This document shows, one piece after another, positions 1-31,350 of a stretch of DNA of 31,350 nucleotides. The position numbers and the translations under genes were made by a program. Source of the DNA: a virus; the IMG/VR virus record IMGVR_UViG_3300037336_000148, positions 1-31,350 of that record. One strand, given 5' to 3'. The notes under the pieces were generated by a model, which was not told the DNA's origin, did no database searches, and saw only the letters and a program-made list of their open reading frames with translations. Every line of letters begins with the position of its first letter. Position 1 is the first letter of the stretch.

Positions 1-127
1 CAAAAATTAGGTGGGGCAGCGCAAATTGCAGCAGTAGGAGTGCAGGGAGTTACAGCAGGAATGGCATTATTTGGGGATCAATCTGAAGACACCGAAAAAG
101 CATTGTTAAAAGTACAAAGTGCCATGG
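1..127. repeat. Terminal direct repeat, copy A (identical to 31224..31350)
   Basis: Bases 1-127 (caaaaattaggtgggg...aaagtgccatgg) recur exactly at 31224-31350. The repeat lies inside an open reading frame. Confidence 0.95.
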
Positions 128-1665
128 CATTTGCGGATGCTATTAGTAGCGTTTCTGATTTAGGCGGTCAATTTAGAGTACTAAAAGCATTAGTTGTAGA
201 AAGTACTTTAGTAAACAAAGCAAATGCAGCAGCGACAGCATTAGCTACCATATCACAAAGATTATTCGGTGTAGCAGTAAACACTACTTCAACAGGTTTT
301 AAGGTCTTAAAAGGCGCAATTGCTGCAACAGGAATTGGACTTCTAGTTGTAGGAGTTGTGGCATTAATACAAAACTTTGATAAGGTCAAAGAAGTAGCTT
401 TAAATTTTATTCCTGCACTTGCAAGTGTTGGCAAAACCATTAGTAATATTGTAAATAGTGTTACGGATTTTATAGGATTGACTTCTCAGACAGACAGGTT
501 ATTAGCAAAGTCTAAACAAAAAGCAGAGGAAAATATAGCGCAAAACGAAAGGTATCTTGAACGTAATGCTAGTACATTGTCAGAGTCTAGGAAAAAAGAA
601 ATAGAATTAAATAACGAACATTTTTCTAGAATAGCAGAAGGCAGATTTAGCGAAGCAGAAAGTTTACTAATTTATAACGAAGCTCAAAGAAAAGAAGTAA
701 GAGAAAAAAATAAAATACTTAACGACTTAGAAAAAGCAGCGCAAGAAAAAAGGAATGCAACTGCAAAAGCATTACGAGAAAAAGCAGCAGCGGCAAGAGC
801 AACAGCTATTGAAAAAGAAAAAGAGGAAGCATTAGCGGGTTTCAGACGCGCAGAAGATCAATTTGATCAAGGTTTAAAAGTACAAAAAGAAGCCTTAAAA
901 TCAACAGCAAATGCTTTACTAAGCGATAACGAGTTAAAAGTACAAACAGAAAACGAGGCTTTTGCAAAAAAATTAGAAATATTAAAAGTTTTTAATCAAA
1001 GCACAGAAGCAGTTGAGATAGAACATAAAAGAGTTTTAGCGCAATTAAATAATGAGTTTTTTGCGGGTGAAGCAGATAAAGCAAAGAAAACTGGAGAATC
1101 AAAAATTTTAATTGCAACGCAGGTTGCAGAAGCAGAAAATACAATACAACAAAAACAATTTGAAGTTGCTGAAAAAGGAATTTCTTTAATTAAGTCTTTG
1201 TTTGGTAGAAATAAGGTTATTCAAAAAGCATCTTTAATTGCTGAGTCGGCAATTGGAATTGCAAAAATGATAATAAGCACAAAGGCAGCAAACGCTGCTG
1301 CTGTTTTAAAATATGCGCTTTTACCTGGTGGTACAATATTAGCTGCTAAAGAATCTGTTTTAAATAATGTTAGTACTGGAATTGGTATTGCAGCAAACGT
1401 TGCAGCAACTGCAAAAGGATTACAGGCATTAGGCGGCGGCGGCGCTCCTAGTGCTCCTAGTTTAAACACAAGCGGTGGTGGTGGCGGTGTTCAAGCAGCA
1501 ACAGCCCCATCCGTATCGTTTAACAATACAGCAGAAAACCAAATAGGACAAAGTTTGGGTAAGGCACAAGCAAATCAACCAGCGCAAAGAGTTTTTGTGT
1601 TGGAATCAGATATTAAAGACGCAACAAATAATGTAAAAGCATTAGTAATAAAGAATAGTTTTTAA
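1..1665 (+). CDS. Tape-measure-like virion protein, 3-prime portion (continues from 30867..31350 across the circular junction; 673 codons in total)
   Basis: The frame is open from base 1; the track start at 40 is an internal GTG. The terminal repeat places it in frame with the ATG at 30867. Features typical of tape measure or ejection proteins: hydrophobic segment GAIAATGIGLLVVGVVALI, a long Ala/Lys/Glu/Gln coiled-coil middle, and Gly-rich GGGGAPSAPSLNTSGGGGG near the C-terminus. Confidence 0.55.
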   Translation, partial: QKLGGAAQIAAVGVQGVTAGMALFGDQSEDTEKALLKVQSAMAFADAISSVSDLGGQFRVLKALVVESTLVNKANAAATALATISQRLFGVAVNTTSTGFKVLKGAIAATGIGLLVVGVVALIQNFDKVKEVALNFIPALASVGKTISNIVNSVTDFIGLTSQTDRLLAKSKQKAEENIAQNERYLERNASTLSESRKKEIELNNEHFSRIAEGRFSEAESLLIYNEAQRKEVREKNKILNDLEKAAQEKRNATAKALREKAAAARATAIEKEKEEALAGFRRAEDQFDQGLKVQKEALKSTANALLSDNELKVQTENEAFAKKLEILKVFNQSTEAVEIEHKRVLAQLNNEFFAGEADKAKKTGESKILIATQVAEAENTIQQKQFEVAEKGISLIKSLFGRNKVIQKASLIAESAIGIAKMIISTKAANAAAVLKYALLPGGTILAAKESVLNNVSTGIGIAANVAATAKGLQALGGGGAPSAPSLNTSGGGGGVQAATAPSVSFNNTAENQIGQSLGKAQANQPAQRVFVLESDIKDATNNVKALVIKNSF

Positions 1666-1667
1666 TA

Positions 1668-1702
1668 TAAATTTGTTTATTAATTAAAAAGTATTATATT
1701 TG
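1668..1702 (+). promoter_or_regulatory. Two tandem Bacteroidota-type -7 boxes (TAAATTTG 1668-1675, TATATTTG 1695-1702)
   Basis: Both match the TAnnTTTG consensus and sit in the intergenic region. Each lies within the repeated context atttgtttatta. The motif is AT-rich, so chance matches are possible. Confidence 0.35.
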
Positions 1703-1762
1703 TTTATTATTTAAAAAATGTGAAGATGCATTTTACCAATTTATTTTTTTTAGTTGTAAATT

Positions 1763-1795
1763 AAAGTCATGCCTTTATCCGGTATGACTTTTTTT
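1763..1795 (+). terminator. Rho-independent terminator-like hairpin
   Basis: Stem AAAGTCATGCC / GGTATGACTTT (one G-U pair), 7-nt loop, then a T-run ending at 1795. Confidence 0.7.
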
Positions 1796-4298: not shown

Positions 4299-4811
4299 AT
4301 GAGTCTAACAAAATCAAGATTAGTAAGTAGGAAAGCACCAATGAAAGGGATAAAATCCGTTTTCTTTGCGCCTTTTTTAGCATCAACTCCCGTGGTAAAT
4401 ACGGTAACAGGTGTAGTTGCTTTGCCCGCAATTATAAACGCTCTTAGCGTAACAAAAGTAGAGGTAAAAGCAGCAGGAAACAACATTGTAGAAACCTCAA
4501 CATTTGACGAGGCTACACGAACAAACGAGATCGTAGGAGTTTTAACATTTTTTGTAAACGGTAATGATTTATCTTTAAGAAATGAAATTACAACAGACTC
4601 AGGAATTTTAAAAACTATTTTTGTAGAGGATTACAACGGTGTAATTCGTGTTTTAGGATCGCAAAATGGTTGTGATGTAATGACACTAGTAGGTGGATCA
4701 GACTTACAAGGATTTACAGTAACAATAAATTCAAAAGAAGTAGATTTAGCATTTACATTAGCACCGCTGGGGGTTATTGCTTTAAACGCTGCATTATTAC
4801 CAGTACAATAA
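4299..4811 (+). CDS. Structural protein, possibly a major tail/tube subunit
   Basis: 170 aa, beta-rich composition, followed by its own strong terminator as expected for an abundant virion component. The functional assignment is a guess. Confidence 0.35.
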   Translation: MSLTKSRLVSRKAPMKGIKSVFFAPFLASTPVVNTVTGVVALPAIINALSVTKVEVKAAGNNIVETSTFDEATRTNEIVGVLTFFVNGNDLSLRNEITTDSGILKTIFVEDYNGVIRVLGSQNGCDVMTLVGGSDLQGFTVTINSKEVDLAFTLAPLGVIALNAALLPVQ

Positions 4812-10557: not shown

Positions 10558-11433
10558 TTGAAAAATAATAACAGACGTTACCGCTTAAGCGATTACCAAG
10601 CGGCTAATTTAGGCTTAGAATTAAAAAAAATTAATCAATACACTTTAACCGCAGAACAAGAGGAACAGCATTTAAATAGCTTTGCAAACTTAGAAAACAC
10701 AACTAGAAAAGCAGTATTTACAGACGCGTTTAATAGTCAGGATGACATAAAGTCTTTACCTAAAAACGTTAAAATTAATAAAAAAGGTAAGCGTGTTTTA
10801 ATTATTGGAGATTTGCACGAACCGTTTTGCTTAGAAAAATATAGAGATCATTGTTTAAAAACTTACCAGGAATATAATTGTGATACTGTTGTGTTCATAG
10901 GCGACGTTATAGACAACCACGCAAGTTCTTACCATGAAACAGATCCAGATGGACACTCAGCGGGTCAAGAATTAAAACTGGCAATTTACAATATTAAGCA
11001 ATGGTACAAAGTTTTTCCAAAAGCATACGTTACAATTGGTAACCATGACAGGTTAATTATGCGCAAAGCAATGACAAGCGGTCTATCTAAAATGTGGATT
11101 AGAGATTACGCTGAGGTCTTGGGTGTTATCGGATGGAAATTTGTAGAAAGCGTAGAGATAGACAACGTACTTTACATTCATGGTGAAGGTGGAACCGCAA
11201 GGAATAGAGCGCGTAGGGACTTACAAAGCGTAGTACAAGGACATCTACACACACAATGTTATGTAGAGTGGATTGTAGGAGCTAAATTTAAAATATTTGG
11301 TATGCAAATAGGGTGTGGTGTAGATAATAAGTCATATGCATTAGCTTATGGTAAAAATTATGCAAAGCCTGCTATATCTTGCGGTGTTGTAGAATACGGA
11401 AAACGTGCAACAAATATAATGATGGATCTATAA
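10558..11433 (+). CDS. Calcineurin-like metallophosphoesterase
   Basis: Ordered motifs are present: GDLHEP, GDVIDNH, GNHD, HGEGG, GHLH. The frame opens at 10549 and has no in-frame ATG before the catalytic motifs, so the TTG at 10558 is the only plausible start. Confidence 0.85.
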   Translation: MKNNNRRYRLSDYQAANLGLELKKINQYTLTAEQEEQHLNSFANLENTTRKAVFTDAFNSQDDIKSLPKNVKINKKGKRVLIIGDLHEPFCLEKYRDHCLKTYQEYNCDTVVFIGDVIDNHASSYHETDPDGHSAGQELKLAIYNIKQWYKVFPKAYVTIGNHDRLIMRKAMTSGLSKMWIRDYAEVLGVIGWKFVESVEIDNVLYIHGEGGTARNRARRDLQSVVQGHLHTQCYVEWIVGAKFKIFGMQIGCGVDNKSYALAYGKNYAKPAISCGVVEYGKRATNIMMDL

Positions 11434-11461
11434 AAAAAACCGCTTGTTATAGCGGTTTAAA
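11432..11461. terminator. Bidirectional terminator between convergent transcription units
   Basis: Stem AAACCGCT / AGCGGTTT with a 6-nt loop. An A8 run precedes it, which reads as a T-run on the minus strand, so it is stronger for the minus-strand operon. TTT follows it on the + strand. Confidence 0.75.
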
Positions 11462-11489
11462 TTTCTACTTTTCAAATGTTATTACTACT

Positions 11490-11714
11490 TTATGAAAAAG
11501 CCTTTAAAATAGAATTTACGTTTAGAACACCCGATTCTAAATTTAATTCTCCTTCTTTTATTCTTTGAATTATTGCGTATGCAACTAATGAACCATTGCT
11601 ATTTTTTGTTTTGTAATAGTCTTCTAATGCCCAATATATAACGTCTTCAACTCTTTCAATATGTGAATTTTCTATTAATTCATCTAGAATAATTTCTTTT
11701 AATATTTTACTCAT
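11490..11714 (-). CDS. Hypothetical protein (last gene of the minus-strand island)
   Basis: The track ORF starts at a TTG (11744). The in-frame ATG at 11714 (MSKILKEII...) is more plausible. No motif recognised. Confidence 0.55.
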   Translation of the reverse strand: MSKILKEIILDELIENSHIERVEDVIYWALEDYYKTKNSNGSLVAYAIIQRIKEGELNLESGVLNVNSILKAFS

Positions 11715-11789
11715 TTTTTGTTTTATTATAACTACAACCAACAACTTGTGTATTAAATGGCTGTAATTGTGATTAATTAATACTTATTT

Positions 11790-11897
11790 CTATTTTCCTG
11801 TTATTTGTTTCCATTTTTCTAAATGTTCATCTAATTTTAAATAACTATATTCAATATTTAATAATGCATTTCGACACCAATCAGCAAAAGATTTCAT
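11790..11897 (-). CDS. Possible 35-aa ORF (MKSFADWCRNALLNIEYSYLKLDEHLEKWKQITGK)
   Basis: Hand-translated. ATG start, fills the gap between two minus-strand genes, and is below the length shown in the ORF track. Confidence 0.25.
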   Translation of the reverse strand: MKSFADWCRNALLNIEYSYLKLDEHLEKWKQITGK

Positions 11898-11922
11898 ATC
11901 TTCTTTAGTGTATTCTATTTTC

Positions 11923-12276
11923 TTATTTTTTTTTTCTGATTTCATATTGCTCGCTATAATGTTTAATATGTATTTTACTTATTTGTTCTTGAATTTCAGG
12001 ATATTTTTTTTGATCTAATCCGTTCCAAAACTCACTTAAAGTCCAATAAGAAACTTTTAAGGCATCTTGATTAGTTTTACAATAAAAACCTTTTTTATGG
12101 TTAATACAAGAAGTTGGTGAACAACAACCAGTCTCTCCACAACCAGAACAATAAGGACAATAAACATCATATTTTCTATTTCTGAAAAGACCTTTAAATT
12201 TAGAAAGACAACGCATAACAGCAGTTTGCAAAAATGGCAGGTTTATTCGTTCAATCATATTTTTTTTACGCATCAT
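11923..12276 (-). CDS. Cys-dense small protein, unknown function
   Basis: 117 aa containing CPYCSGCGETGCCSPTSC plus two further Cys. It starts 2 nt after the HTH gene stop. Confidence 0.6.
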   Translation of the reverse strand: MMRKKNMIERINLPFLQTAVMRCLSKFKGLFRNRKYDVYCPYCSGCGETGCCSPTSCINHKKGFYCKTNQDALKVSYWTLSEFWNGLDQKKYPEIQEQISKIHIKHYSEQYEIRKKK

Positions 12277-12278
12277 AT

Positions 12279-12536
12279 TTATTTACCTTCAAATGTTATT
12301 ACTACTTTATGCCCTAGTTTTTTACCCGCTTTATTTGCAAATTGCAAAAGACTTTCAAGATCATATATAAAAAATTCATGCACGTCAATATTGTTCTCTT
12401 TGCAAACCTTTTCAAACGTTTCTAGCGAAGGCGAAGTAGTGCCTAGTTCCCATCTCTTTAATTGCAGGGCACTAATACCTACAATGTCTTTTTTAGCCCT
12501 TAAAATGGCCGTTAATTGTTGTTGTATTTTACTCAT
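12279..12536 (-). CDS. XRE/Cro-CI-type helix-turn-helix transcriptional regulator
   Basis: ISALQLKRWELGTTSPSLETFEKVCKENNIDVHEFF fits the HTH_3 pattern (helix-turn-helix, then the E.G...PSL..L.K......V...F pattern). Confidence 0.75.
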   Translation of the reverse strand: MSKIQQQLTAILRAKKDIVGISALQLKRWELGTTSPSLETFEKVCKENNIDVHEFFIYDLESLLQFANKAGKKLGHKVVITFEGK

Positions 12537-12661
12537 GATGATATTAGTCTAAATAATTTGGGTAAATAATCAAATATAATAAATAATAAATCCGCAATAA
12601 TAATAATTAATAAAACTATTTTTACCGAAGTAGGGAGAGTTTTGTTTATATATTTCCACAT
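12533..12661 (-). CDS. Possible 42-aa hydrophobic peptide (MWKYINKTLPTSVKIVLLIIIIADLLFIIFDYLPKLFRLISS)
   Basis: Hand-translated. ATG start, one clear TM-like segment, and its TGA stop overlaps the ATG of the HTH gene (ATGA). Absent from the ORF track because of its length. Confidence 0.4.
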   Translation of the reverse strand: MWKYINKTLPTSVKIVLLIIIIADLLFIIFDYLPKLFRLISS

Positions 12662-12677
12662 AATAAAATATTTTTAT

Positions 12678-13034
12678 TTATAAGTTAAAATCTGTTTTTA
12701 GTTTACCGTTGTCATCAGAAAAAACTGCAAAGGTATAATGATTAAATGTAGTTAAGCAGCATATTATACTAAAGTAATTACTGCAATAAAATCCTGTAAC
12801 GCTATTATAAAATAAAAAATCCTTATCTTTTACTTCATAAGAATTAAAAGTGCTGACATTTACGTTCATAATTAATTGCTCTTCTAGCTGCTTAAACCCC
12901 CCTTGCGTTGTGATTTTGTTATCATTATTAATTTCTTTTTGATTGTTGTTGATGTCATACAAAACCATTAACTTTTCAATTTCGCTTACTCTTTTTTGAA
13001 GTGCTGAGATGCGTGTACTGTCTATATCATTCAT
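12678..13034 (-). CDS. Hypothetical protein
   Basis: 118-aa ORF with a coiled-coil-like N-terminus (RISALQKRVSEIEKL) and an aromatic/Cys-containing C-terminal half. Confidence 0.6.
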   Translation of the reverse strand: MNDIDSTRISALQKRVSEIEKLMVLYDINNNQKEINNDNKITTQGGFKQLEEQLIMNVNVSTFNSYEVKDKDFLFYNSVTGFYCSNYFSIICCLTTFNHYTFAVFSDDNGKLKTDFNL

Positions 13035-13162
13035 AATTTTATAGGTTCGTTAAATACAGGGTCGTTAATAATAATTTTAAGCGCAGTAATGTACTTTTCT
13101 TTTTCTAATTCTGCTATTCTCTTTTCCAATGCCTCAATACGGGCTAAATAAAAATCGTTCAT
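13031..13162 (-). CDS. Possible 43-aa coiled-coil ORF (MNDFYLARIEALEKRIAELEKEKYITALKIIINDPVFNEPIKL)
   Basis: Hand-translated. ATG start about 15 nt downstream of a minus-strand TATATTTG box. Its stop overlaps the next ATG (ATGA). Its N-terminus is paralogous to the next gene. Confidence 0.4.
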   Translation of the reverse strand: MNDFYLARIEALEKRIAELEKEKYITALKIIINDPVFNEPIKL

Positions 13163-13176
13163 AATATTTTTTTTTA

Positions 13177-13184
13177 CAAATATA
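13177..13184 (-). promoter_or_regulatory. -7 box TATATTTG for the minus-strand island
   Basis: The + strand reads CAAATATA, so the minus strand reads TATATTTG. It lies just upstream of the first minus-strand ORF. Confidence 0.45.
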
Positions 13185-13207
13185 GTAACACTTCTGATAA
13201 AATAAAT

Positions 13208-13219
13208 ATCATTAATGAT
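13208..13219. promoter_or_regulatory. Perfect 12-bp palindrome ATCATTAATGAT (operator candidate)
   Basis: The sequence is its own reverse complement. It lies between the divergent -7 boxes at 13177-13184 (minus) and 13262-13269 (plus). Confidence 0.3.
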
Positions 13220-13261
13220 TAATTTAACGTTTTATTAACTATTACATATTAAGTTATAACT

Positions 13262-13269
13262 TAAATTTG
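13262..13269 (+). promoter_or_regulatory. -7 box TAAATTTG for the rightward early operon
   Basis: Matches TAnnTTTG, 17 nt upstream of the ATG at 13286. Confidence 0.4.
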
Positions 13270-13285
13270 TAAAAAAATAAAACAC

Positions 13286-13507
13286 ATGGACACAACAGAC
13301 TACACGAACAATGCACCGTATTTAAACGAAGAGCAAACAGAAACTGAACAAGTAACAGTGGATGCATGGTATCATGACGAACTTATTAAAATTGCAAAAC
13401 TTACTAAAGAGTATTTTACAATTTTTAACTTTCCAATGGAAAAAACAAACGACGAATTAATTAGGCTCTACGAAATTAAAAAACAACTAAATAAATTACT
13501 ATGTTAA
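13286..13507 (+). CDS. Small acidic early protein, unknown function
   Basis: 73 aa and the first gene of the rightward operon. The N-terminal half is rich in D/E/T (DTTDYTNNAPYLNEEQTETEQVTVD). Confidence 0.55.
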   Translation: MDTTDYTNNAPYLNEEQTETEQVTVDAWYHDELIKIAKLTKEYFTIFNFPMEKTNDELIRLYEIKKQLNKLLC

Positions 13508-13869
13508 TATCAGAATTAGATCTAGATAATAATAAAAAAGCGTTATATTATCAGGCAAGAGCGGAAAAATATTGTAATAAAGACACAAATGATTTAGATT
13601 GTGCGTTTATTTGGGGGCATACAAAAGAAGGATATCTATATTGGAAACAATTACATGAAGCTATATTAGTTGACAACGACGTACCCAAACACTACAAAAA
13701 CGCAACGAATAAAGACGTAATTGATTTTTGCCATGACAACAATATTAATTTTTGTCGTGGTTCAGCAATAAAATACATAGTTCGTGCTGGCAAAAAAGAC
13801 GACGAAATAGAGGATTTGAAAAAAGCTATTGACTTTTTGCAACGAGAAATAAAAAATTTAAAAAAGTAA
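13501..13869 (+). CDS. DUF3310 (SaV-like) protein
   Basis: PKHYKNATNKDVIDFCHDNNINFCRGSAIKYIVRAGKKDDEIEDLKKAIDFLQREI matches the P.HY...(I)D.I....F..G.AIKY..R...K....DL.KA..YL pattern of DUF3310. Confidence 0.65.
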   Translation: MLISELDLDNNKKALYYQARAEKYCNKDTNDLDCAFIWGHTKEGYLYWKQLHEAILVDNDVPKHYKNATNKDVIDFCHDNNINFCRGSAIKYIVRAGKKDDEIEDLKKAIDFLQREIKNLKK

Positions 13870-13878
13870 TATTAATCA

Positions 13879-13945
13879 GCCATAATTTAACAGATGCAAT
13901 GCTGCTTAGTAACTGTTAAATTATGGCATAAAAAAAATAAATAAA
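13879..13945 (+). promoter_or_regulatory. Stem-loop element copy 1 plus A-rich spacer
   Basis: Perfect 15-bp stem GCCATAATTTAACAG (13879-13893) / CTGTTAAATTATGGC (13913-13927) with a 19-nt loop, then ATAAAAAAAATAAATAAA and the ATG at 13946. Confidence 0.5.
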
Positions 13946-14125
13946 ATGTCAAAAGAAAAAAAACTTACACAAGCCCTTGAATTAGCAAAGTCTAAATTAA
14001 AAGTAGCTGAACAGGCATTGAATGATATTACCAAATGGGATGATGATTTGGAAGATGAATATGGAGACCCTGGAGAAAGAGCTAGTTCGGCTTTAAAAAA
14101 GATTATGATTTTAAACGGTTTTTAG
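13946..14125 (+). CDS. Possible 59-aa ORF (MSKEKKLTQALELAKSKLKVAEQALNDITKWDDDLEDEYGDPGERASSALKKIMILNGF)
   Basis: Hand-translated, ATG start, fills an otherwise empty 400-nt gap. Just below the track length cut-off. Confidence 0.45.
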   Translation: MSKEKKLTQALELAKSKLKVAEQALNDITKWDDDLEDEYGDPGERASSALKKIMILNGF

Positions 14126-14200
14126 CCTTGCCAATAACTAATCGATTACAGTATATTTAATACGCCAAGCATAAACCGTTTTAAAAATAAATATTAAACA

Positions 14201-14278
14201 GCCATAGTCAGCTAAAAAAACAAAAATTAACTTTTTTGCTTCTGGTAAGAAAGTTGATTATGGCATAAAAAAAAATAA
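14201..14278 (+). promoter_or_regulatory. Stem-loop element copy 2 plus A-rich spacer
   Basis: 12-bp stem GCCATAGTCAGC (14201-14212) / GTTGATTATGGC (14253-14264) with two G-U pairs that work only in the + strand RNA. ATAAAAAAAAATAA and the ATG at 14279 follow. Flanks are shared with copy 1 (ATTAAnCAGCCATA ... ATTATGGCATAAAAAAAA). Confidence 0.45.
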
Positions 14279-14539
14279 ATGGAATTATTATATACCCTCA
14301 CACAATTAGCAAATCATTTAAAAATTTCAGAAAAATCAGTTAGAAATAAATTAAATATTTTAAAAATAAAAAGATATAGTTCTAAAAATAGAAATGCGAT
14401 GTATTCAGCTGACGTAATTATTGTTTTAGAAAAATCTTATGTTTATAAATATCCACATAAAATTAAAAATGATATTAAAGGTTATACTGCAAATTATTTA
14501 ATAATAGAATCCAAATTAAACTATGATACATTATTGTAA
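14279..14539 (+). CDS. Small DNA-binding-like protein (HTH candidate)
   Basis: The N-terminus YTLTQLANHLKISEKSVRNKL looks like an excisionase/MerR-type helix-turn-helix. Weak evidence. Confidence 0.4.
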   Translation: MELLYTLTQLANHLKISEKSVRNKLNILKIKRYSSKNRNAMYSADVIIVLEKSYVYKYPHKIKNDIKGYTANYLIIESKLNYDTLL

Positions 14540-14777
14540 TTGCGATCAAAAATACGTTACCGAATCCAGCTCCAAAAGATGTTGCACAGCGCAAAGTATT
14601 AAAATAAAAAAAGAAGCCGTACCAACGGCTAAAAGAAGGTTAAAAAAGACTAAAGAAGAAATAAAAGCATATCGAGAGATTTACTATTTAAAAAATAGAG
14701 ATAAAATATTAATGGTCCAAAGAATTTACGATCAAAATAAAAAACATGAAAAGAACATACAACGTATTGGAGAATAG
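14523..14777 (+). CDS. Basic Cys-containing hypothetical protein
   Basis: 84-aa ORF with an N-terminal HYCNCDQKY...KRCC segment and a Lys/Arg-rich remainder. Confidence 0.45.
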   Translation: MIHYCNCDQKYVTESSSKRCCTAQSIKIKKEAVPTAKRRLKKTKEEIKAYREIYYLKNRDKILMVQRIYDQNKKHEKNIQRIGE

Positions 14778-14889
14778 ATTTACACTTGCAGAAATTGCAA
14801 GCGCATTAATACCAAATGCAAAAAAATTGGTTAGAGAATCTAAAGACTTACCGCATTTACAAAAACCTATAAAGTACCTGCTAAAATAA
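14746..14889 (+). CDS. Possible 47-aa ORF (MKRTYNVLENRFTLAEIASALIPNAKKLVRESKDLPHLQKPIKYLLK)
   Basis: Hand-translated. It overlaps the previous ORF by 32 nt in another frame. Low support. Confidence 0.2.
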   Translation: MKRTYNVLENRFTLAEIASALIPNAKKLVRESKDLPHLQKPIKYLLK

Positions 14890-14908
14890 GTTCTTAAATT
14901 ATTGTTAA

Positions 14909-14916
14909 TATATTTG
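14909..14916 (+). promoter_or_regulatory. -7 box TATATTTG
   Basis: Exact TATATTTG in an intergenic region upstream of the small ORF at 14983. Confidence 0.4.
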
Positions 14917-14982
14917 CGAACTAATGTAAAACTATTGTATTTTTACACCAGCAATAAAGCTAAACACTAAAATATAGAAATT

Positions 14983-15135
14983 ATGACTATTCAAGAAAAA
15001 TTAAACAGAAAAGGTTACAATTTAGTAGCAAGTTACAATAATGGCGAAAGAGTAGGGTATTTTGCTAATAATAGAAAATACAACGAAAAAACTAGAATTT
15101 ATAAAACTCAAACAGAAGTTTTAAACTCAATTTAA
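14983..15135 (+). CDS. Possible 50-aa ORF (MTIQEKLNRKGYNLVASYNNGERVGYFANNRKYNEKTRIYKTQTEVLNSI)
   Basis: Hand-translated, ATG start, downstream of a -7 box. It fills the gap before 15156. Confidence 0.35.
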   Translation: MTIQEKLNRKGYNLVASYNNGERVGYFANNRKYNEKTRIYKTQTEVLNSI

Positions 15136-15155
15136 CCATTAAAAAAAAATAAGTT

Positions 15156-18765: not shown

Positions 18766-19265
18766 CAATAGAAAACGCATTACAAAGAATACATTGGAGA
18801 GCTTCTTCCCAACAAAATTACAAGCCAAATCCTAAAGACATTGAAGCGGTTAATTTTATGGTAGAATGGGTTAACCGAGAAAAAAAGCAGTCTATAAAAA
18901 AACATCAAATGTTTGCTAAGTTATACGCAACATATTTGGGGGAGTTGCTGCTGCATTACAAAGACATCGACCAGGCGCAAAAAGAAATAAACACAATATT
19001 GTCAGCTCCCACAGAAAATAGTTTCTTTTGGTTTAGAGAAAAATTTAATTTAGTAGAACATGAAAAAGCTTTAAAAGTTTTGCATCTATCAAACGCTCCA
19101 TATTACATGAAAAGTAAAGATGAGCTGGAAAAAGAAAAAGAAATCTTGCAAGATAACCAAGAGTATTTTTTAAAACACATTCAGCAATGGAGTTTAGAAA
19201 ATATCAGTAAAAGTTTAGAAAATCAAATAACCGAAGCAATAAATAGATATGATAACAATTACTAA
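18762..19265 (+). CDS. Hypothetical protein
   Basis: 167-aa ORF coupled to both neighbouring genes by overlaps. No motif recognised. Confidence 0.6.
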   Translation: MTIENALQRIHWRASSQQNYKPNPKDIEAVNFMVEWVNREKKQSIKKHQMFAKLYATYLGELLLHYKDIDQAQKEINTILSAPTENSFFWFREKFNLVEHEKALKVLHLSNAPYYMKSKDELEKEKEILQDNQEYFLKHIQQWSLENISKSLENQITEAINRYDNNY

Positions 19266-19896
19266 CGAATGCAATATGGAGCTTATGGCTCGATACCCTG
19301 ATAATTATTTTGATTTGGCAATTGTTGATCCGCCTTACGGGATAGGAATGGATGGTGCAAAAGAAAGTACAAGTAAACACGGAGGTAGAAAAGCATACGA
19401 ATTTAAAGGGTGGGACAATAAAATGCCAAGTAAAGAATATTTTACTGAATTATTTAGAGTTAGTAAAAATCAAATTATTTGGGGTGCTAATTACTTTTGT
19501 AAATATTTACCTAGCTCGATGGGTTGGATTTTTTGGGACAAAGGACAAAGAATTTGTAATAGCGACGGAGAGCTTGCATATTCAAGTTTTAAAAAAGCTT
19601 TAAGGGTTTATGAATTAAACAGATGTGAAATACAAAAGTTTGGCGGTGCAATCCACCCTACACAAAAACCCGTTAAACTTTACGAATGGCTTTTAATTAA
19701 CTACGCAAAAGAAGGCGATAAAATACTAGACACGCATGGTGGATCAATGTCAATTGCTTTAGCAGTTCACAACGTAAATAGTAAAAACAATATGAATTTA
19801 GATTTAAATTTATGTGAATTGGATACGGATTATTTTGACGCTGGAGTAAAAAGATATAATAATCATATAAAGCAGAAAACTATTTTTGATTTATGA
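19249..19896 (+). CDS. DNA methyltransferase, beta-class N6A/N4C family (orphan)
   Basis: Motif IV IVDPPYG precedes HPTQKPVKLYEWLI and the motif I-like ILDTHGGSMS. This order is typical of the N6_N4_Mtase family. No restriction partner is present in the genome. Confidence 0.85.
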   Translation: MITITNECNMELMARYPDNYFDLAIVDPPYGIGMDGAKESTSKHGGRKAYEFKGWDNKMPSKEYFTELFRVSKNQIIWGANYFCKYLPSSMGWIFWDKGQRICNSDGELAYSSFKKALRVYELNRCEIQKFGGAIHPTQKPVKLYEWLLINYAKEGDKILDTHGGSMSIALAVHNVNSKNNMNLDLNLCELDTDYFDAGVKRYNNHIKQKTIFDL

Positions 19897-19907
19897 CATT
19901 TAATTAC

Positions 19908-19915
19908 TATATTTG
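19908..19915 (+). promoter_or_regulatory. -7 box TATATTTG upstream of the HNH gene
   Basis: Exact motif 22 nt before the ATG at 19938. Confidence 0.35.
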
Positions 19916-19937
19916 CTTAAATAAATGTATATCTAAA

Positions 19938-20525
19938 ATGGCAAATGTAATTGATTTAGTAGGTTTAAGTTTTGGAAGATTAAAAGTTCTTTCAAGAAAT
20001 GAAGTAAAGGGTAACAGGAGACAAGTAAGATGGGATTGTGTTTGTAAATGTAAAAACACGCATACTGTTACAGGGGAAAGTTTAAGGAGCGGCAAGAGTA
20101 AAAGTTGCGGTTGTTTATTAAAAGAAGCACGTTTTGTAAAAAACAAAAATACAGATAGAGAGCTAGCAATGTTACTTTTAATTTATAGCCCTATGAAAAA
20201 AAGACATAGGTTTAAATTTAAAAATGAAGATTATATAAACTTTGATTTCTTTAAAAAATTAAGTTTATCAAATTGTTTTTATTGCGGTTCAATTCCTTAT
20301 AATACACAGTCAGACGTTAGGTACTTAAAAGATGGCACAAAATTAATAATCACAGATTTTATTTTAAAATACAACGGTATTGATAGAATTGACAGTCTAA
20401 AAGGATATGAAAATGAAAATGTTGTTTCCTGCTGTAAAAATTGTAATTCAGCAAAAATGCAATTAACTATTTTAGACTTTAAAAACCATATAATTAAAAT
20501 TTATAAAAACTTTGCATCAAAATAA
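19938..20525 (+). CDS. Free-standing HNH-type endonuclease
   Basis: N-terminus DLVGLSFGRLKVL...RWDCVCKCKN...SGKSKSCGC and C-terminus GIDRIDSLKGYENENVVSCCKNCNSAK match a family widely annotated as phage HNH endonucleases. An alternative upstream ATG at 19893 overlaps the methyltransferase stop (ATGA). Confidence 0.55.
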   Translation: MANVIDLVGLSFGRLKVLSRNEVKGNRRQVRWDCVCKCKNTHTVTGESLRSGKSKSCGCLLKEARFVKNKNTDRELAMLLLIYSPMKKRHRFKFKNEDYINFDFFKKLSLSNCFYCGSIPYNTQSDVRYLKDGTKLIITDFILKYNGIDRIDSLKGYENENVVSCCKNCNSAKMQLTILDFKNHIIKIYKNFASK

Positions 20526-30866: not shown

Positions 30867-31350
30867 ATGGCAAATAAAAATCAAGACGAAGAAAAAAGAG
30901 TAAAAATTATATTTGATCAGAACGCAAGCACCGCAGCAACTGATGTAAACAAATTAAAAGCATCCTTAGATAAGGTAGAGGTTAGTGCAAAAGATGCTGA
31001 CAAGTCATTTAAAAATATTGACAAGACATTTGAGCAAGTTTACGGAGATTTGCAACCCCTTACGACTAGATTAGGCGAAGCAGAAGACAGATTGTATGAA
31101 TTGTCATTAGCGGGGCAAACTACCACTGAGGAGTTTAGATTGTTACTTCAAACTGTTGCAAATTACAGACGTGTTCAGATACAAACAGATCAGACCGTTG
31201 ATGCAGCAGCCACAACAATAGGCCAAAAATTAGGTGGGGCAGCGCAAATTGCAGCAGTAGGAGTGCAGGGAGTTACAGCAGGAATGGCATTATTTGGGGA
31301 TCAATCTGAAGACACCGAAAAAGCATTGTTAAAAGTACAAAGTGCCATGG
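30867..31350 (+). CDS. Tape-measure-like virion protein, 5-prime portion (continues into 1..1665)
   Basis: ATG at 30867, 1 nt after the previous stop. The frame is open to the window end and in phase with 1..1665 once the 127-bp overlap is collapsed. Confidence 0.55.
   Translation, partial: MANKNQDEEKRVKIIFDQNASTAATDVNKLKASLDKVEVSAKDADKSFKNIDKTFEQVYGDLQPLTTRLGEAEDRLYELSLAGQTTTEEFRLLLQTVANYRRVQIQTDQTVDAAATTIGQKLGGAAQIAAVGVQGVTAGMALFGDQSEDTEKALLKVQSAM
31224..31350. repeat. Terminal direct repeat, copy B (identical to 1..127)
   Basis: Exact 127/127 match read by eye. Confidence 0.95.

Follow-up and report, generated by a model that had tools for sequence, protein, structure and literature searches.

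The Aca proteins, Cro and the C proteins of restriction-modification systems all follow the same self-limiting autorepression logic. Regulated accessory operons have been the source of most anti-CRISPR and anti-defence genes, and in such work the regulator was used as the bait. Crystal structures have been published for Aca1, Aca2 and Aca10. In this study we analyze a block of seven small genes in a viral DNA of 31,350 nucleotides (IMG/VR record IMGVR_UViG_3300037336_000148, positions 1 to 31,350), and by the window we mean this whole stretch at its full length. Our comparison of the block with its relatives suggests, with moderate confidence, that it is an accessory operon that represses itself and has a conserved core, namely a small coiled-coil gene (cc), a gene for an 85-amino-acid helix-turn-helix (HTH) protein of the XRE family (HTH85) and the control region in front of them. 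The design is a familiar one, the regulator-anchored accessory operon, and the locus is a new example of it rather than a new seven-gene system. In the literature searched, no regulated accessory operon of such kind is described from phages of Bacteroidota.

The closest described systems are the acr-aca operons, in which Aca1, Aca2 or Aca10 is the HTH autorepressor (PMC6765145, PMC9410906, PMC13551039). An inverted repeat in these operons overlaps the promoter and lies no more than 100 nt from the operon start, and in about 40% of acr-aca1 operons a second repeat is found upstream (PMC13551039); no Aca from Bacteroidota is described in the same study (PMC13551039). The block resembles acr-aca operons in that a small HTH gene stands within a short operon of small, fast-changing and unannotatable genes, that one or two candidate inverted repeats appear to lie over its own promoter less than 100 nt from the first start codon, and that the regulator is kept while its neighbours swap between related phages. 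Unlike those operons, however, the block carries its HTH gene in mid-operon with cargo on both sides, and a small coiled-coil gene is invariably found upstream. The preliminary description of this DNA had drawn the same parallel, which holds for the design of promoter and putative operators but does not extend to homology with Aca or Acr proteins, for which PDB searches, Foldseek and family scans returned no match. No Aca is found among the 13 PDB sequence matches of HTH85 (E up to 10) or among the best 50 of its 144 Foldseek matches in PDB, and none of the partner proteins matches a known Acr, toxin or defence family in Pfam, PHROG, NCBIfam or PADLOC, a scan that included no Acr-specific set. 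An anti-defence reading of the block would be one by analogy with these operons.

C proteins such as C.BclI and C.Esp1396I offer a second parallel. They are HTH proteins of 75-85 amino acids with the same fold class, and they are among the Foldseek matches of HTH85. C proteins bind two adjacent palindromes over their own promoter and thereby time the co-transcribed genes, a layout that the block seems to resemble. In contrast to C-protein systems, the block has no restriction or modification gene, the Foldseek E values of 2-3 indicate a generic XRE similarity, and the C-box sequence is unrelated. The block is also comparable to phage morons and hot spots, since it shows presence, absence and replacement among close relatives, insertions at gene boundaries and short duplicated edges. 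It differs from morons in that the anchor itself is the proposed regulator of the cargo genes, most of which seem to depend on the common promoter instead of having their own.

The conserved core and its control region

Relatives of the block were reached by four routes, through the metallophosphoesterase, the HTH protein, the cc protein and the cysteine-rich protein, which yielded about 16 independent metagenomic contigs; the contigs compared were L001, L041-L049, L052-L058, L062 and L063. Every context that bears the HTH gene shows the same arrangement, in which the gene p73 and the block diverge from a spacer of about 120 bp, and cc is followed by zero to two genes, the HTH gene and from none to at least seven further genes. 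The block always ends convergently with the late operon, and its recurring parts are the control region, cc, the HTH gene and the terminator. L045 represents the minimal form, with cc and HTH only. The slot between cc and HTH is filled by g2_118 and TM42 in the window and in L001, and by an unrelated family of 111-117 amino acids in L044, L054, L063 and L065. The genes behind the HTH gene differ in nearly every contig and encode a YopX protein, DUF7352 and DUF7446 proteins, an 85-amino-acid protein with multiple transmembrane (TM) segments (in L053, L055 and L063) and many unmatched products. About 30 different small genes occupy the two slots across the relatives. Because only cc, HTH and the control region co-occur across relatives, these three are the unit of inheritance, and the seven genes of the window are not co-inherited. 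The preliminary description had proposed them as an undescribed system of seven genes, and this is where it finds no support: the HTH gene stands together with the gene for the 118-amino-acid or the cysteine-rich protein only in the window and the near-identical L001, and the expected co-occurrence of HTH and cysteine-rich protein fails even in L001, which lacks the cysteine-rich gene. The divergent gene p73 (13286-13507, plus strand) encodes an acidic protein of 71-73 amino acids that matches no family. It invariably opens the divergent early operon and is co-inherited with cc and HTH.

The cc protein varies from 43 to 66 amino acids across the relatives and has a conserved tail, N[DN]P[IV]F[ED]xPIK. 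Its gene lies 5' of the HTH gene in every relative whose 5' flank is covered, and it is the first gene of the operon except in L052, where an open reading frame (ORF) of 64 amino acids comes before it. With 10 nonsynonymous and 5-7 synonymous codon changes, cc is a fast-evolving gene that changes faster than the HTH gene, and its product has no match in Pfam, PHROG or NCBIfam. A kinship of the SinI/SinR type between cc and the C-terminus of the HTH protein was considered, and no alignment was obtained. In L035, a cc-like protein of 53 amino acids is encoded at 1609-1770 (minus strand) in the direction of the early operon, on the strand opposite to a cassette of the order HTH73-TM60-Cys112-g6. 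Since the HTH cassette facing this cc-like gene is an unrelated one, the coiled-coil gene is not strictly bound to the HTH85 family.

HTH85 belongs to a family of 12 clusters, all from metagenomes, and its homologues in the relatives are 83-87 amino acids long. It passes the Pfam profile HTH_3 (PF01381) with 23.7 bits at a cutoff of 23, over profile positions 18-55 of 55, and three of the 12 clusters carry a precomputed PF01381 match; the assignment of an XRE-type HTH protein to the block is therefore upheld, though by a marginal pass. The AlphaFold2 (AF2) model (predicted local distance difference test, pLDDT, 74) has helices at residues 3-14, 16-19, 23-31, 38-47 and 60-74 and a short C-terminal extension. 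Its top Foldseek matches are the XRE domains of DdrO, ClgR, SinR and C.BclI, all with E above 0.1 and a TM value of about 0.45 (here the Foldseek structural score), and Foldseek against PDB and BFVD yields generic XRE domains only, all with E above 0.04. Between the window and L043 the HTH gene shows 24 synonymous and 7 nonsynonymous codon changes, which indicates purifying selection. Because of this selection and the predicted XRE fold, we consider HTH85 to be a real gene.

The spacer was aligned among eight relatives, and its conserved elements are the two -7 boxes, a block of the form GTTAA-N6-GTTAA and two copies of CATTARTG. The boxes are of the TAnnTTTG form, the promoter type known from Bacteroidota. 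The -7 box of the leftward promoter (P_left) stays at one and the same place of the alignment in each of the eight relatives that have this spacer, so the promoter box earlier ascribed to the block is confirmed as fixed in position, and the perfect palindrome noted just upstream of it recurs in the relatives as the candidate operator O1 (Table 1). The centre of O1 lies 29 bp and that of the second candidate operator, O2, 8 bp upstream of the P_left -7 box, with a spacing of 21 bp. These offsets are exact in every relative with at least 77% HTH identity, and CATTA[AG]TG is found at the O1 offset in the window and seven such relatives. The O1/O2 region, 22-50 nt upstream of the cc ATG, covers the -33 region and the spacer of P_left. 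From the -7 box of the rightward promoter (P_right) the centres of O1 and O2 are 48 and 69 bp away, and both sites overlap the core promoter of P_left.

The motifs were also set against chance. TAnnTTTG is common in the window: its strands have 33 and 43 copies, with an expectation of about 17. A lone 12-bp palindrome is no rarity either, as the window has 11 perfect ones, but 2 of these 11 fall within the 123-bp spacer, for which the expectation is about 0.04. The fixed positions of the box and the first palindrome across relatives exceed chance. O1 is the sole copy of CATTARTG in the 31-kb genome, and relaxed operator matches across the genome stay at chance level, giving no sign of a wider regulon. 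In L046 and L047, whose HTH proteins are 52% identical to HTH85, the -7 boxes and the GTTAA block are kept and the CATTARTG sites are gone, a pattern of a single lineage that would look like co-variation of regulator and operator. L046 has instead a pair of TTAGTT sequences 21 bp apart, displaced by 6 bp from the O1/O2 positions, which is suggestive only of operator covariation. Two further elements were tried and rejected: GTTAA-N6-GTTAA as a recurrent promoter element, since it has a single exact copy in the window, and the palindrome AAGTTATAACTT as an operator, since it is found only in the window and L001.

Taken as a whole, the earlier view of an operon with its own promoter, an inverted repeat as candidate operator and an autoregulator-like XRE protein is supported by these sequence data. 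We propose that the core comprises a Bacteroidota-type promoter, two 8-bp palindromic operators (CATTARTG) placed 21 bp or two helical turns apart, cc, HTH85 and a terminator that the convergent late operon uses as well. At infection P_left would fire, and HTH85 would build up until it binds O1 and O2 as a dimer or a pair of dimers. The bound protein would then block RNA polymerase and switch its own operon off, and the co-transcribed genes would be delivered as an early self-limiting pulse. The other five genes are recently acquired cargo: slot A, between cc and HTH, carries g2_118 and TM42, and slot B, after HTH, carries Cys117, g6_51 and g7_74 and was exchanged through recombination on the conserved HTH gene. 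This proposal takes up the gene layout, the pattern of conservation, the insertion boundaries with their relics and the operator positions as we observe them in the contigs. Binding of HTH85 to O1 and O2, repression and early expression are what the sequence leads us to infer, and the cargo may act on the host in take-over, anti-defence or superinfection exclusion. A further-reaching version would make cc and HTH85 an undescribed two-protein timing switch similar to SinI/SinR, in which the coiled-coil partner modulates the XRE repressor, the locus a portable landing pad that lytic Flavobacteriia phages use for anti-defence or takeover cargo, and the cysteine-rich family a new metal-cluster effector of this kind; we regard this as an unlikely speculation.

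Several points weigh against self-repression of the operon by HTH85. The HTH gene is not the last gene, and the minimal relatives offer it no cargo beyond cc. The spacers of most relatives are only about 20% diverged, so the conservation of the operators could be partly shared ancestry. O2 has mismatches at 3 of its 8 positions in the window, and because of this degeneracy a cooperative two-site repression may be weak here. The stretch GTTAATAAAACGTTAA is the most conserved of the spacer and is kept even in L046 and L047, and the conservation of this GTTAA-N6-GTTAA block suggests a second regulator. TAnnTTTG copies occur inside the operon at 12735 and 12578 at chance density, and the internal TATATTTG at 12578 could drive HTH independently. 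In addition, the module is dispensable, because L002 and L003, close structural relatives that share the structural, lysis and phosphoesterase genes (phosphoesterase 86% and 67% identical), lack it altogether; this fits an accessory role and is silent on what the module does. In L002 (6877-7401) and L003 the 3.7 kb corresponding to window 11434-15155 are missing, and homology resumes just before Erf. The missing stretch holds the minus-strand block, p73, the gene for a DUF3310 protein, p59 and two early genes for 86 and 84 amino acids.

Table 1. Positions of genes, control elements and insertion boundaries of the minus-strand block in the window
Feature	Position	Strand	Description
P_right -7 box TAAATTTG	13262-13269	+	Divergent early operon, first gene p73
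Second palindrome AAGTTATAACTT	13251-13262		Perfect 12-bp palindrome; abuts P_right -7 box
Central block GTTAATAAAACGTTAA	13224-13239		GTTAA-N6-GTTAA; conserved in spacer
Candidate operator O1 ATCATTAATGAT	13208-13219		Perfect 12-bp palindrome; core CATTAATG at 13210-13217
Candidate operator O2	13189-13196		Degenerate here (CAGAAGTG); CATTAATG or CATAAATG in relatives
P_left -7 box TATATTTG	13184-13177	-	TAnnTTTG type; 14 nt 5' of cc ATG at 13162
cc43	13162-13031	-	43-amino-acid coiled-coil gene
Insertion A	12537-13036	-	500 bp, g2_118 and TM42, between cc and HTH; ATGA overlaps at both ends
g2_118	13034-12678	-	From ORF list
TM42	12661-12533	-	Hydrophobic peptide
HTH85	12536-12279	-	XRE-family helix-turn-helix
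24-nt direct repeat CATAAAGTAGTAATAACATTTGAA, copy 1	12288-12311	-	3' end of HTH gene
Insertion B	11496-12287	-	Cys117, g6_51 and g7_74, 3' of HTH
Cys117	12276-11923	-	Cysteine-rich
g6_51	11945-11790	-	51-amino-acid reading of ORF
g7_74	11714-11490	-	From ORF list
24-nt direct repeat CATAAAGTAGTAATAACATTTGAA, copy 2	11471-11494	-	Encodes HKVVITFEK and stop, identical to C-terminus of L001 HTH
Hairpin terminator AAACCGCTATAACAAGCGGTTT	11437-11458		Followed by T-run on minus strand (11458-11437)

Cargo genes and their exchange between related phages

The gene order given in the preliminary description stands for all seven ORFs, but not for the length of the sixth, which had been read as 35 amino acids. 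A 51-amino-acid reading is more likely, because all 51 residues are 94-96% conserved in three phages (L035, L037 and L038). The junctions had been described as ATGA overlaps or 2-nt gaps. This is correct for three of them, with ATGA overlaps at cc/g2_118 and TM42/HTH and a 2-nt gap at HTH/Cys117, but not for the remaining three, which are gaps of 16 nt (g2_118/TM42) and 75 nt (g6/g7) and an overlap of 23 nt between g6 and Cys117. At its far end the block runs, as had been noted, into a hairpin and T-run. The hairpin AAACCGCTATAACAAGCGGTTT lies 3 nt past the stop of the convergent metallophosphoesterase gene on the plus strand and probably serves both converging operons, and it lies inside the block common to the window, L001 and L043.

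Comparison with the relatives places the cargo of the window in two insertions. By blastn against L041, L043 and L045, homology covers 12288-12536 and continues from 13037, with none between 12536 and 13037. Because it stops at 12536 and resumes at 13037, the 500 bp in between are an insertion (insertion A). Of the two genes carried there, g2_118 has one representative among 1.84 billion proteins in an exhaustive HMMER search and is essentially an orphan gene. The first 21 residues of its product (12972-13034) duplicate the N-terminus of cc (13100-13162), with 12 of 21 residues identical (57%) and an E value of 4e-7, and this partial duplication of the cc start marks the upstream edge of insertion A.

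The second insertion is seen in comparison with L001, which is 99% identical to the window over 12288-14887 and keeps cc, g2_118, TM42 and HTH. The segment 11459-12287 is replaced in L001, where unrelated genes for 55 and 110 amino acids are found. Insertion B is bracketed by the two copies of CATAAAGTAGTAATAACATTTGAA, the second of which is left over from an earlier HTH 3' end and marks the far edge of the insertion. The window and L001 differ at 24 positions in 2.6 kb; 10 of these fall within the 112 nt of 12294-12405, and the next 2,470 nt contain only 9. Since the differences cluster in 12294-12405, the crossover is placed inside the HTH gene, with the conserved regulator gene serving as the homology anchor for the cargo swap.

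None of the six non-HTH products belongs to a Pfam, PHROG, NCBIfam or PADLOC family, and the scans of all seven gave only generic HTH matches. No relative of g7_74 is found in IMG/VR. Cys117 and g6_51 are present in L034-L038 without this HTH gene, and in L035 they stand behind an unrelated HTH and a TM protein. The Cys117 family consists of 38 clusters (P0013-P0050), all metagenomic, and shares the pattern YCxxCxxCGxxxCCxPxxCx5GxYC, in which the seven cysteines are invariant. Behind this pattern comes a helical hairpin that is modelled with confidence, and four members have an additional C-terminal TM helix. The AF2 model of Cys117 is poor in the cysteine region, with a pLDDT of 66 overall and about 51 over the cysteines. 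Foldseek against PDB returned nothing, a PDB profile search gave only coiled-coil noise, and no fold was assigned. From the cysteine pattern it is plausible that Cys117 holds a metal site or cluster.

We also observed a shared leader of 45-70 nt (MMRKKNMI...QTAVMRC in translation) 5' of unrelated cargo genes in different phages, at 12216-12284 (minus strand) in the window, at 3431-3499 in L041, at 720-763 in L058 and at 4521, 5258 and 6008 in L036. In L036 the leader core, AAACYGCTGTTATGCG, is repeated at the 5' end of several early genes in a row. The leader could serve as a linker for recombination or have a regulatory role, and the true start codons of the cargo genes may lie downstream of it.

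These observations bear on how the locus might be used. Should HTH85 prove to be an autorepressor, the pair of cc and HTH could serve as a bait for cargo discovery in phages of cold-water Flavobacteriia, and one of the cargo genes already leads to a 38-cluster cysteine-rich family without a known fold. The locus is also a clear case of cargo exchange with a regulator gene as recombination anchor. If the regulator is an ordinary early-gene repressor, the locus would amount to routine phage mosaicism.

Alternative explanations and the genome setting of the block

Two of the alternatives give HTH85 a role in the control of the phage life cycle. It could be a Cro-like or early-switch regulator, possibly together with cc, whose main target is P_right; bound to O1, at about -60, it would activate or damp the early genes, with autoregulation as a secondary effect. 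The inheritance of p73, spacer, cc and HTH as a single block would agree with this, the distance from O1 to P_right resembles that of a class-I activator, and in the window the second palindrome abuts the P_right -7 box; however, this palindrome is conserved in no relative beyond L001, both conserved sites overlap P_left and not P_right, and L002 and L003 have the same structural and replication backbone without the module, which is thus not needed for the lytic programme. We consider this role unlikely. Slightly less probable in our judgement is an immunity or lysogeny-type module, in which HTH85 would be a CI-like maintenance repressor with rex-like passengers in a phage that is temperate, or pseudolysogenic without integration. 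The model here is the PRM-cI-rexA-rexB operon of phage lambda, likewise a leftward repressor operon with passengers that diverges from an early operon (of the PR-cro type) and is placed between late/lysis and replication genes. The block is found exactly where the late/lysis genes meet the early operon, the usual site of siphovirus lysogeny modules, its promoter is divergent from the early one, and it carries small membrane proteins (TM42, and the 85-amino-acid multi-TM protein of the three relatives named above) of the kind known from superinfection exclusion. The nearest NCBIfam and PDB names of HTH85 also include RstR and the P22 C2 repressor, but these matches stay far under the family cutoffs. 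Unlike in lambda, the operators are clear of the early promoter and overlap only the promoter of the HTH operon itself, and the regulator has just 85 amino acids and no C-terminal cleavage or oligomerisation domain; by Pfam it has neither an S24 nor an oligomerisation domain, nor a larger sensor or peptidase domain. When 32 plus-strand ORFs of the complete genome, among them all those of at least 120 amino acids, were scanned with PHROG and Pfam, no integrase, recombinase or partition gene was found, and genome scans of the large ORFs with the same libraries found no excisionase or telomere-resolving gene. Nor does any relative have an integrase Pfam match adjoining the module. Among 185,579 bacterial and archaeal species genomes (one each), the search returned only a 34%-identical generic XRE protein from a Clostridiales metagenome-assembled genome, hence no true homologue of HTH85 and no prophage copy, and all 12 clusters of the family are metagenomic. 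The preliminary description had reported a phage without integrase or partition gene and had argued that the block is not a classical lysogeny module, and on both points our results agree with it.

The other two alternatives concern the function of the block as a whole. In a cassette of the type II toxin-antitoxin or abortive kind, HTH85 would be the antitoxin that neutralises and transcriptionally controls a toxin, either TM42 or g2_118. The ATGA overlap of TM42 and HTH might suggest this, and so might the names that rank first for the HTH protein in PDB and NCBIfam (the antitoxins PezA and HigA). We find this very improbable, given that the antitoxin matches are limited to the generic HTH with E values of 1e-3 to 1e-2, that no partner matches a toxin or PADLOC family, and that TM42 and g2_118 occur only in the window and the near-identical L001, with cc or a gene for 111-117 amino acids preceding HTH elsewhere. 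Hardly credible at all, in our view, is a single undescribed system for defence or anti-defence in which the seven genes function jointly with HTH85 as their anchor. Tight packing with two ATGA overlaps, a single pair of promoter and terminator and the lack of any known family among the products speak for it, but most relatives lack five of the seven genes, L001 has retained genes 1-4 with others in place of genes 5-7, Cys117 and g6_51 live elsewhere without the HTH gene, and recombination scars flank the cargo. The self-repressed accessory operon is the reading that we favour over these four.

The ends of the window (1-127 and 31224-31350) are identical over 127 bp, so that it represents a complete, circular assembly of some 31.2 kb, and the structural module spans the circularised ends. 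Plus-strand structural, lysis and metallophosphoesterase genes reach to 11433. From 13286 on, also on the plus strand, follows the early/replication operon with p73 and genes for a DUF3310 protein, Erf, a helicase, a methyltransferase, an HNH protein and a primase-like AAA protein, and 3' of it lie the terminase and more structural genes. The seven consecutive ORFs between 11437 and 13219 constitute the sole minus-strand coding block of the window. Every other minus-strand ORF of at least 70 amino acids is nested within a larger plus-strand ORF, and the GC and AT skew change sign only across about 11500-13000, so that ORF lists and skew agree with the single minus-strand block noticed earlier in this unidirectional genome. 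No cultured relative of this Flavobacteriia-type phage was found, the closest large terminase subunit (TerL) proteins, from Flavobacterium phages, being only 40% identical. A distant-sensitivity blastn search of 50,697 phage records returned no match for the island, and tblastn with the HTH protein found nothing. Megablast of 25 kb yielded the sole nucleotide-level match of the genome to cultured phages, a 97-bp fragment of its methyltransferase gene that matches Streptococcus phages. In the early region of the window, at 19249-20525 (plus strand), this DNA methyltransferase gene is directly followed by an HNH or endonuclease VII-like gene.

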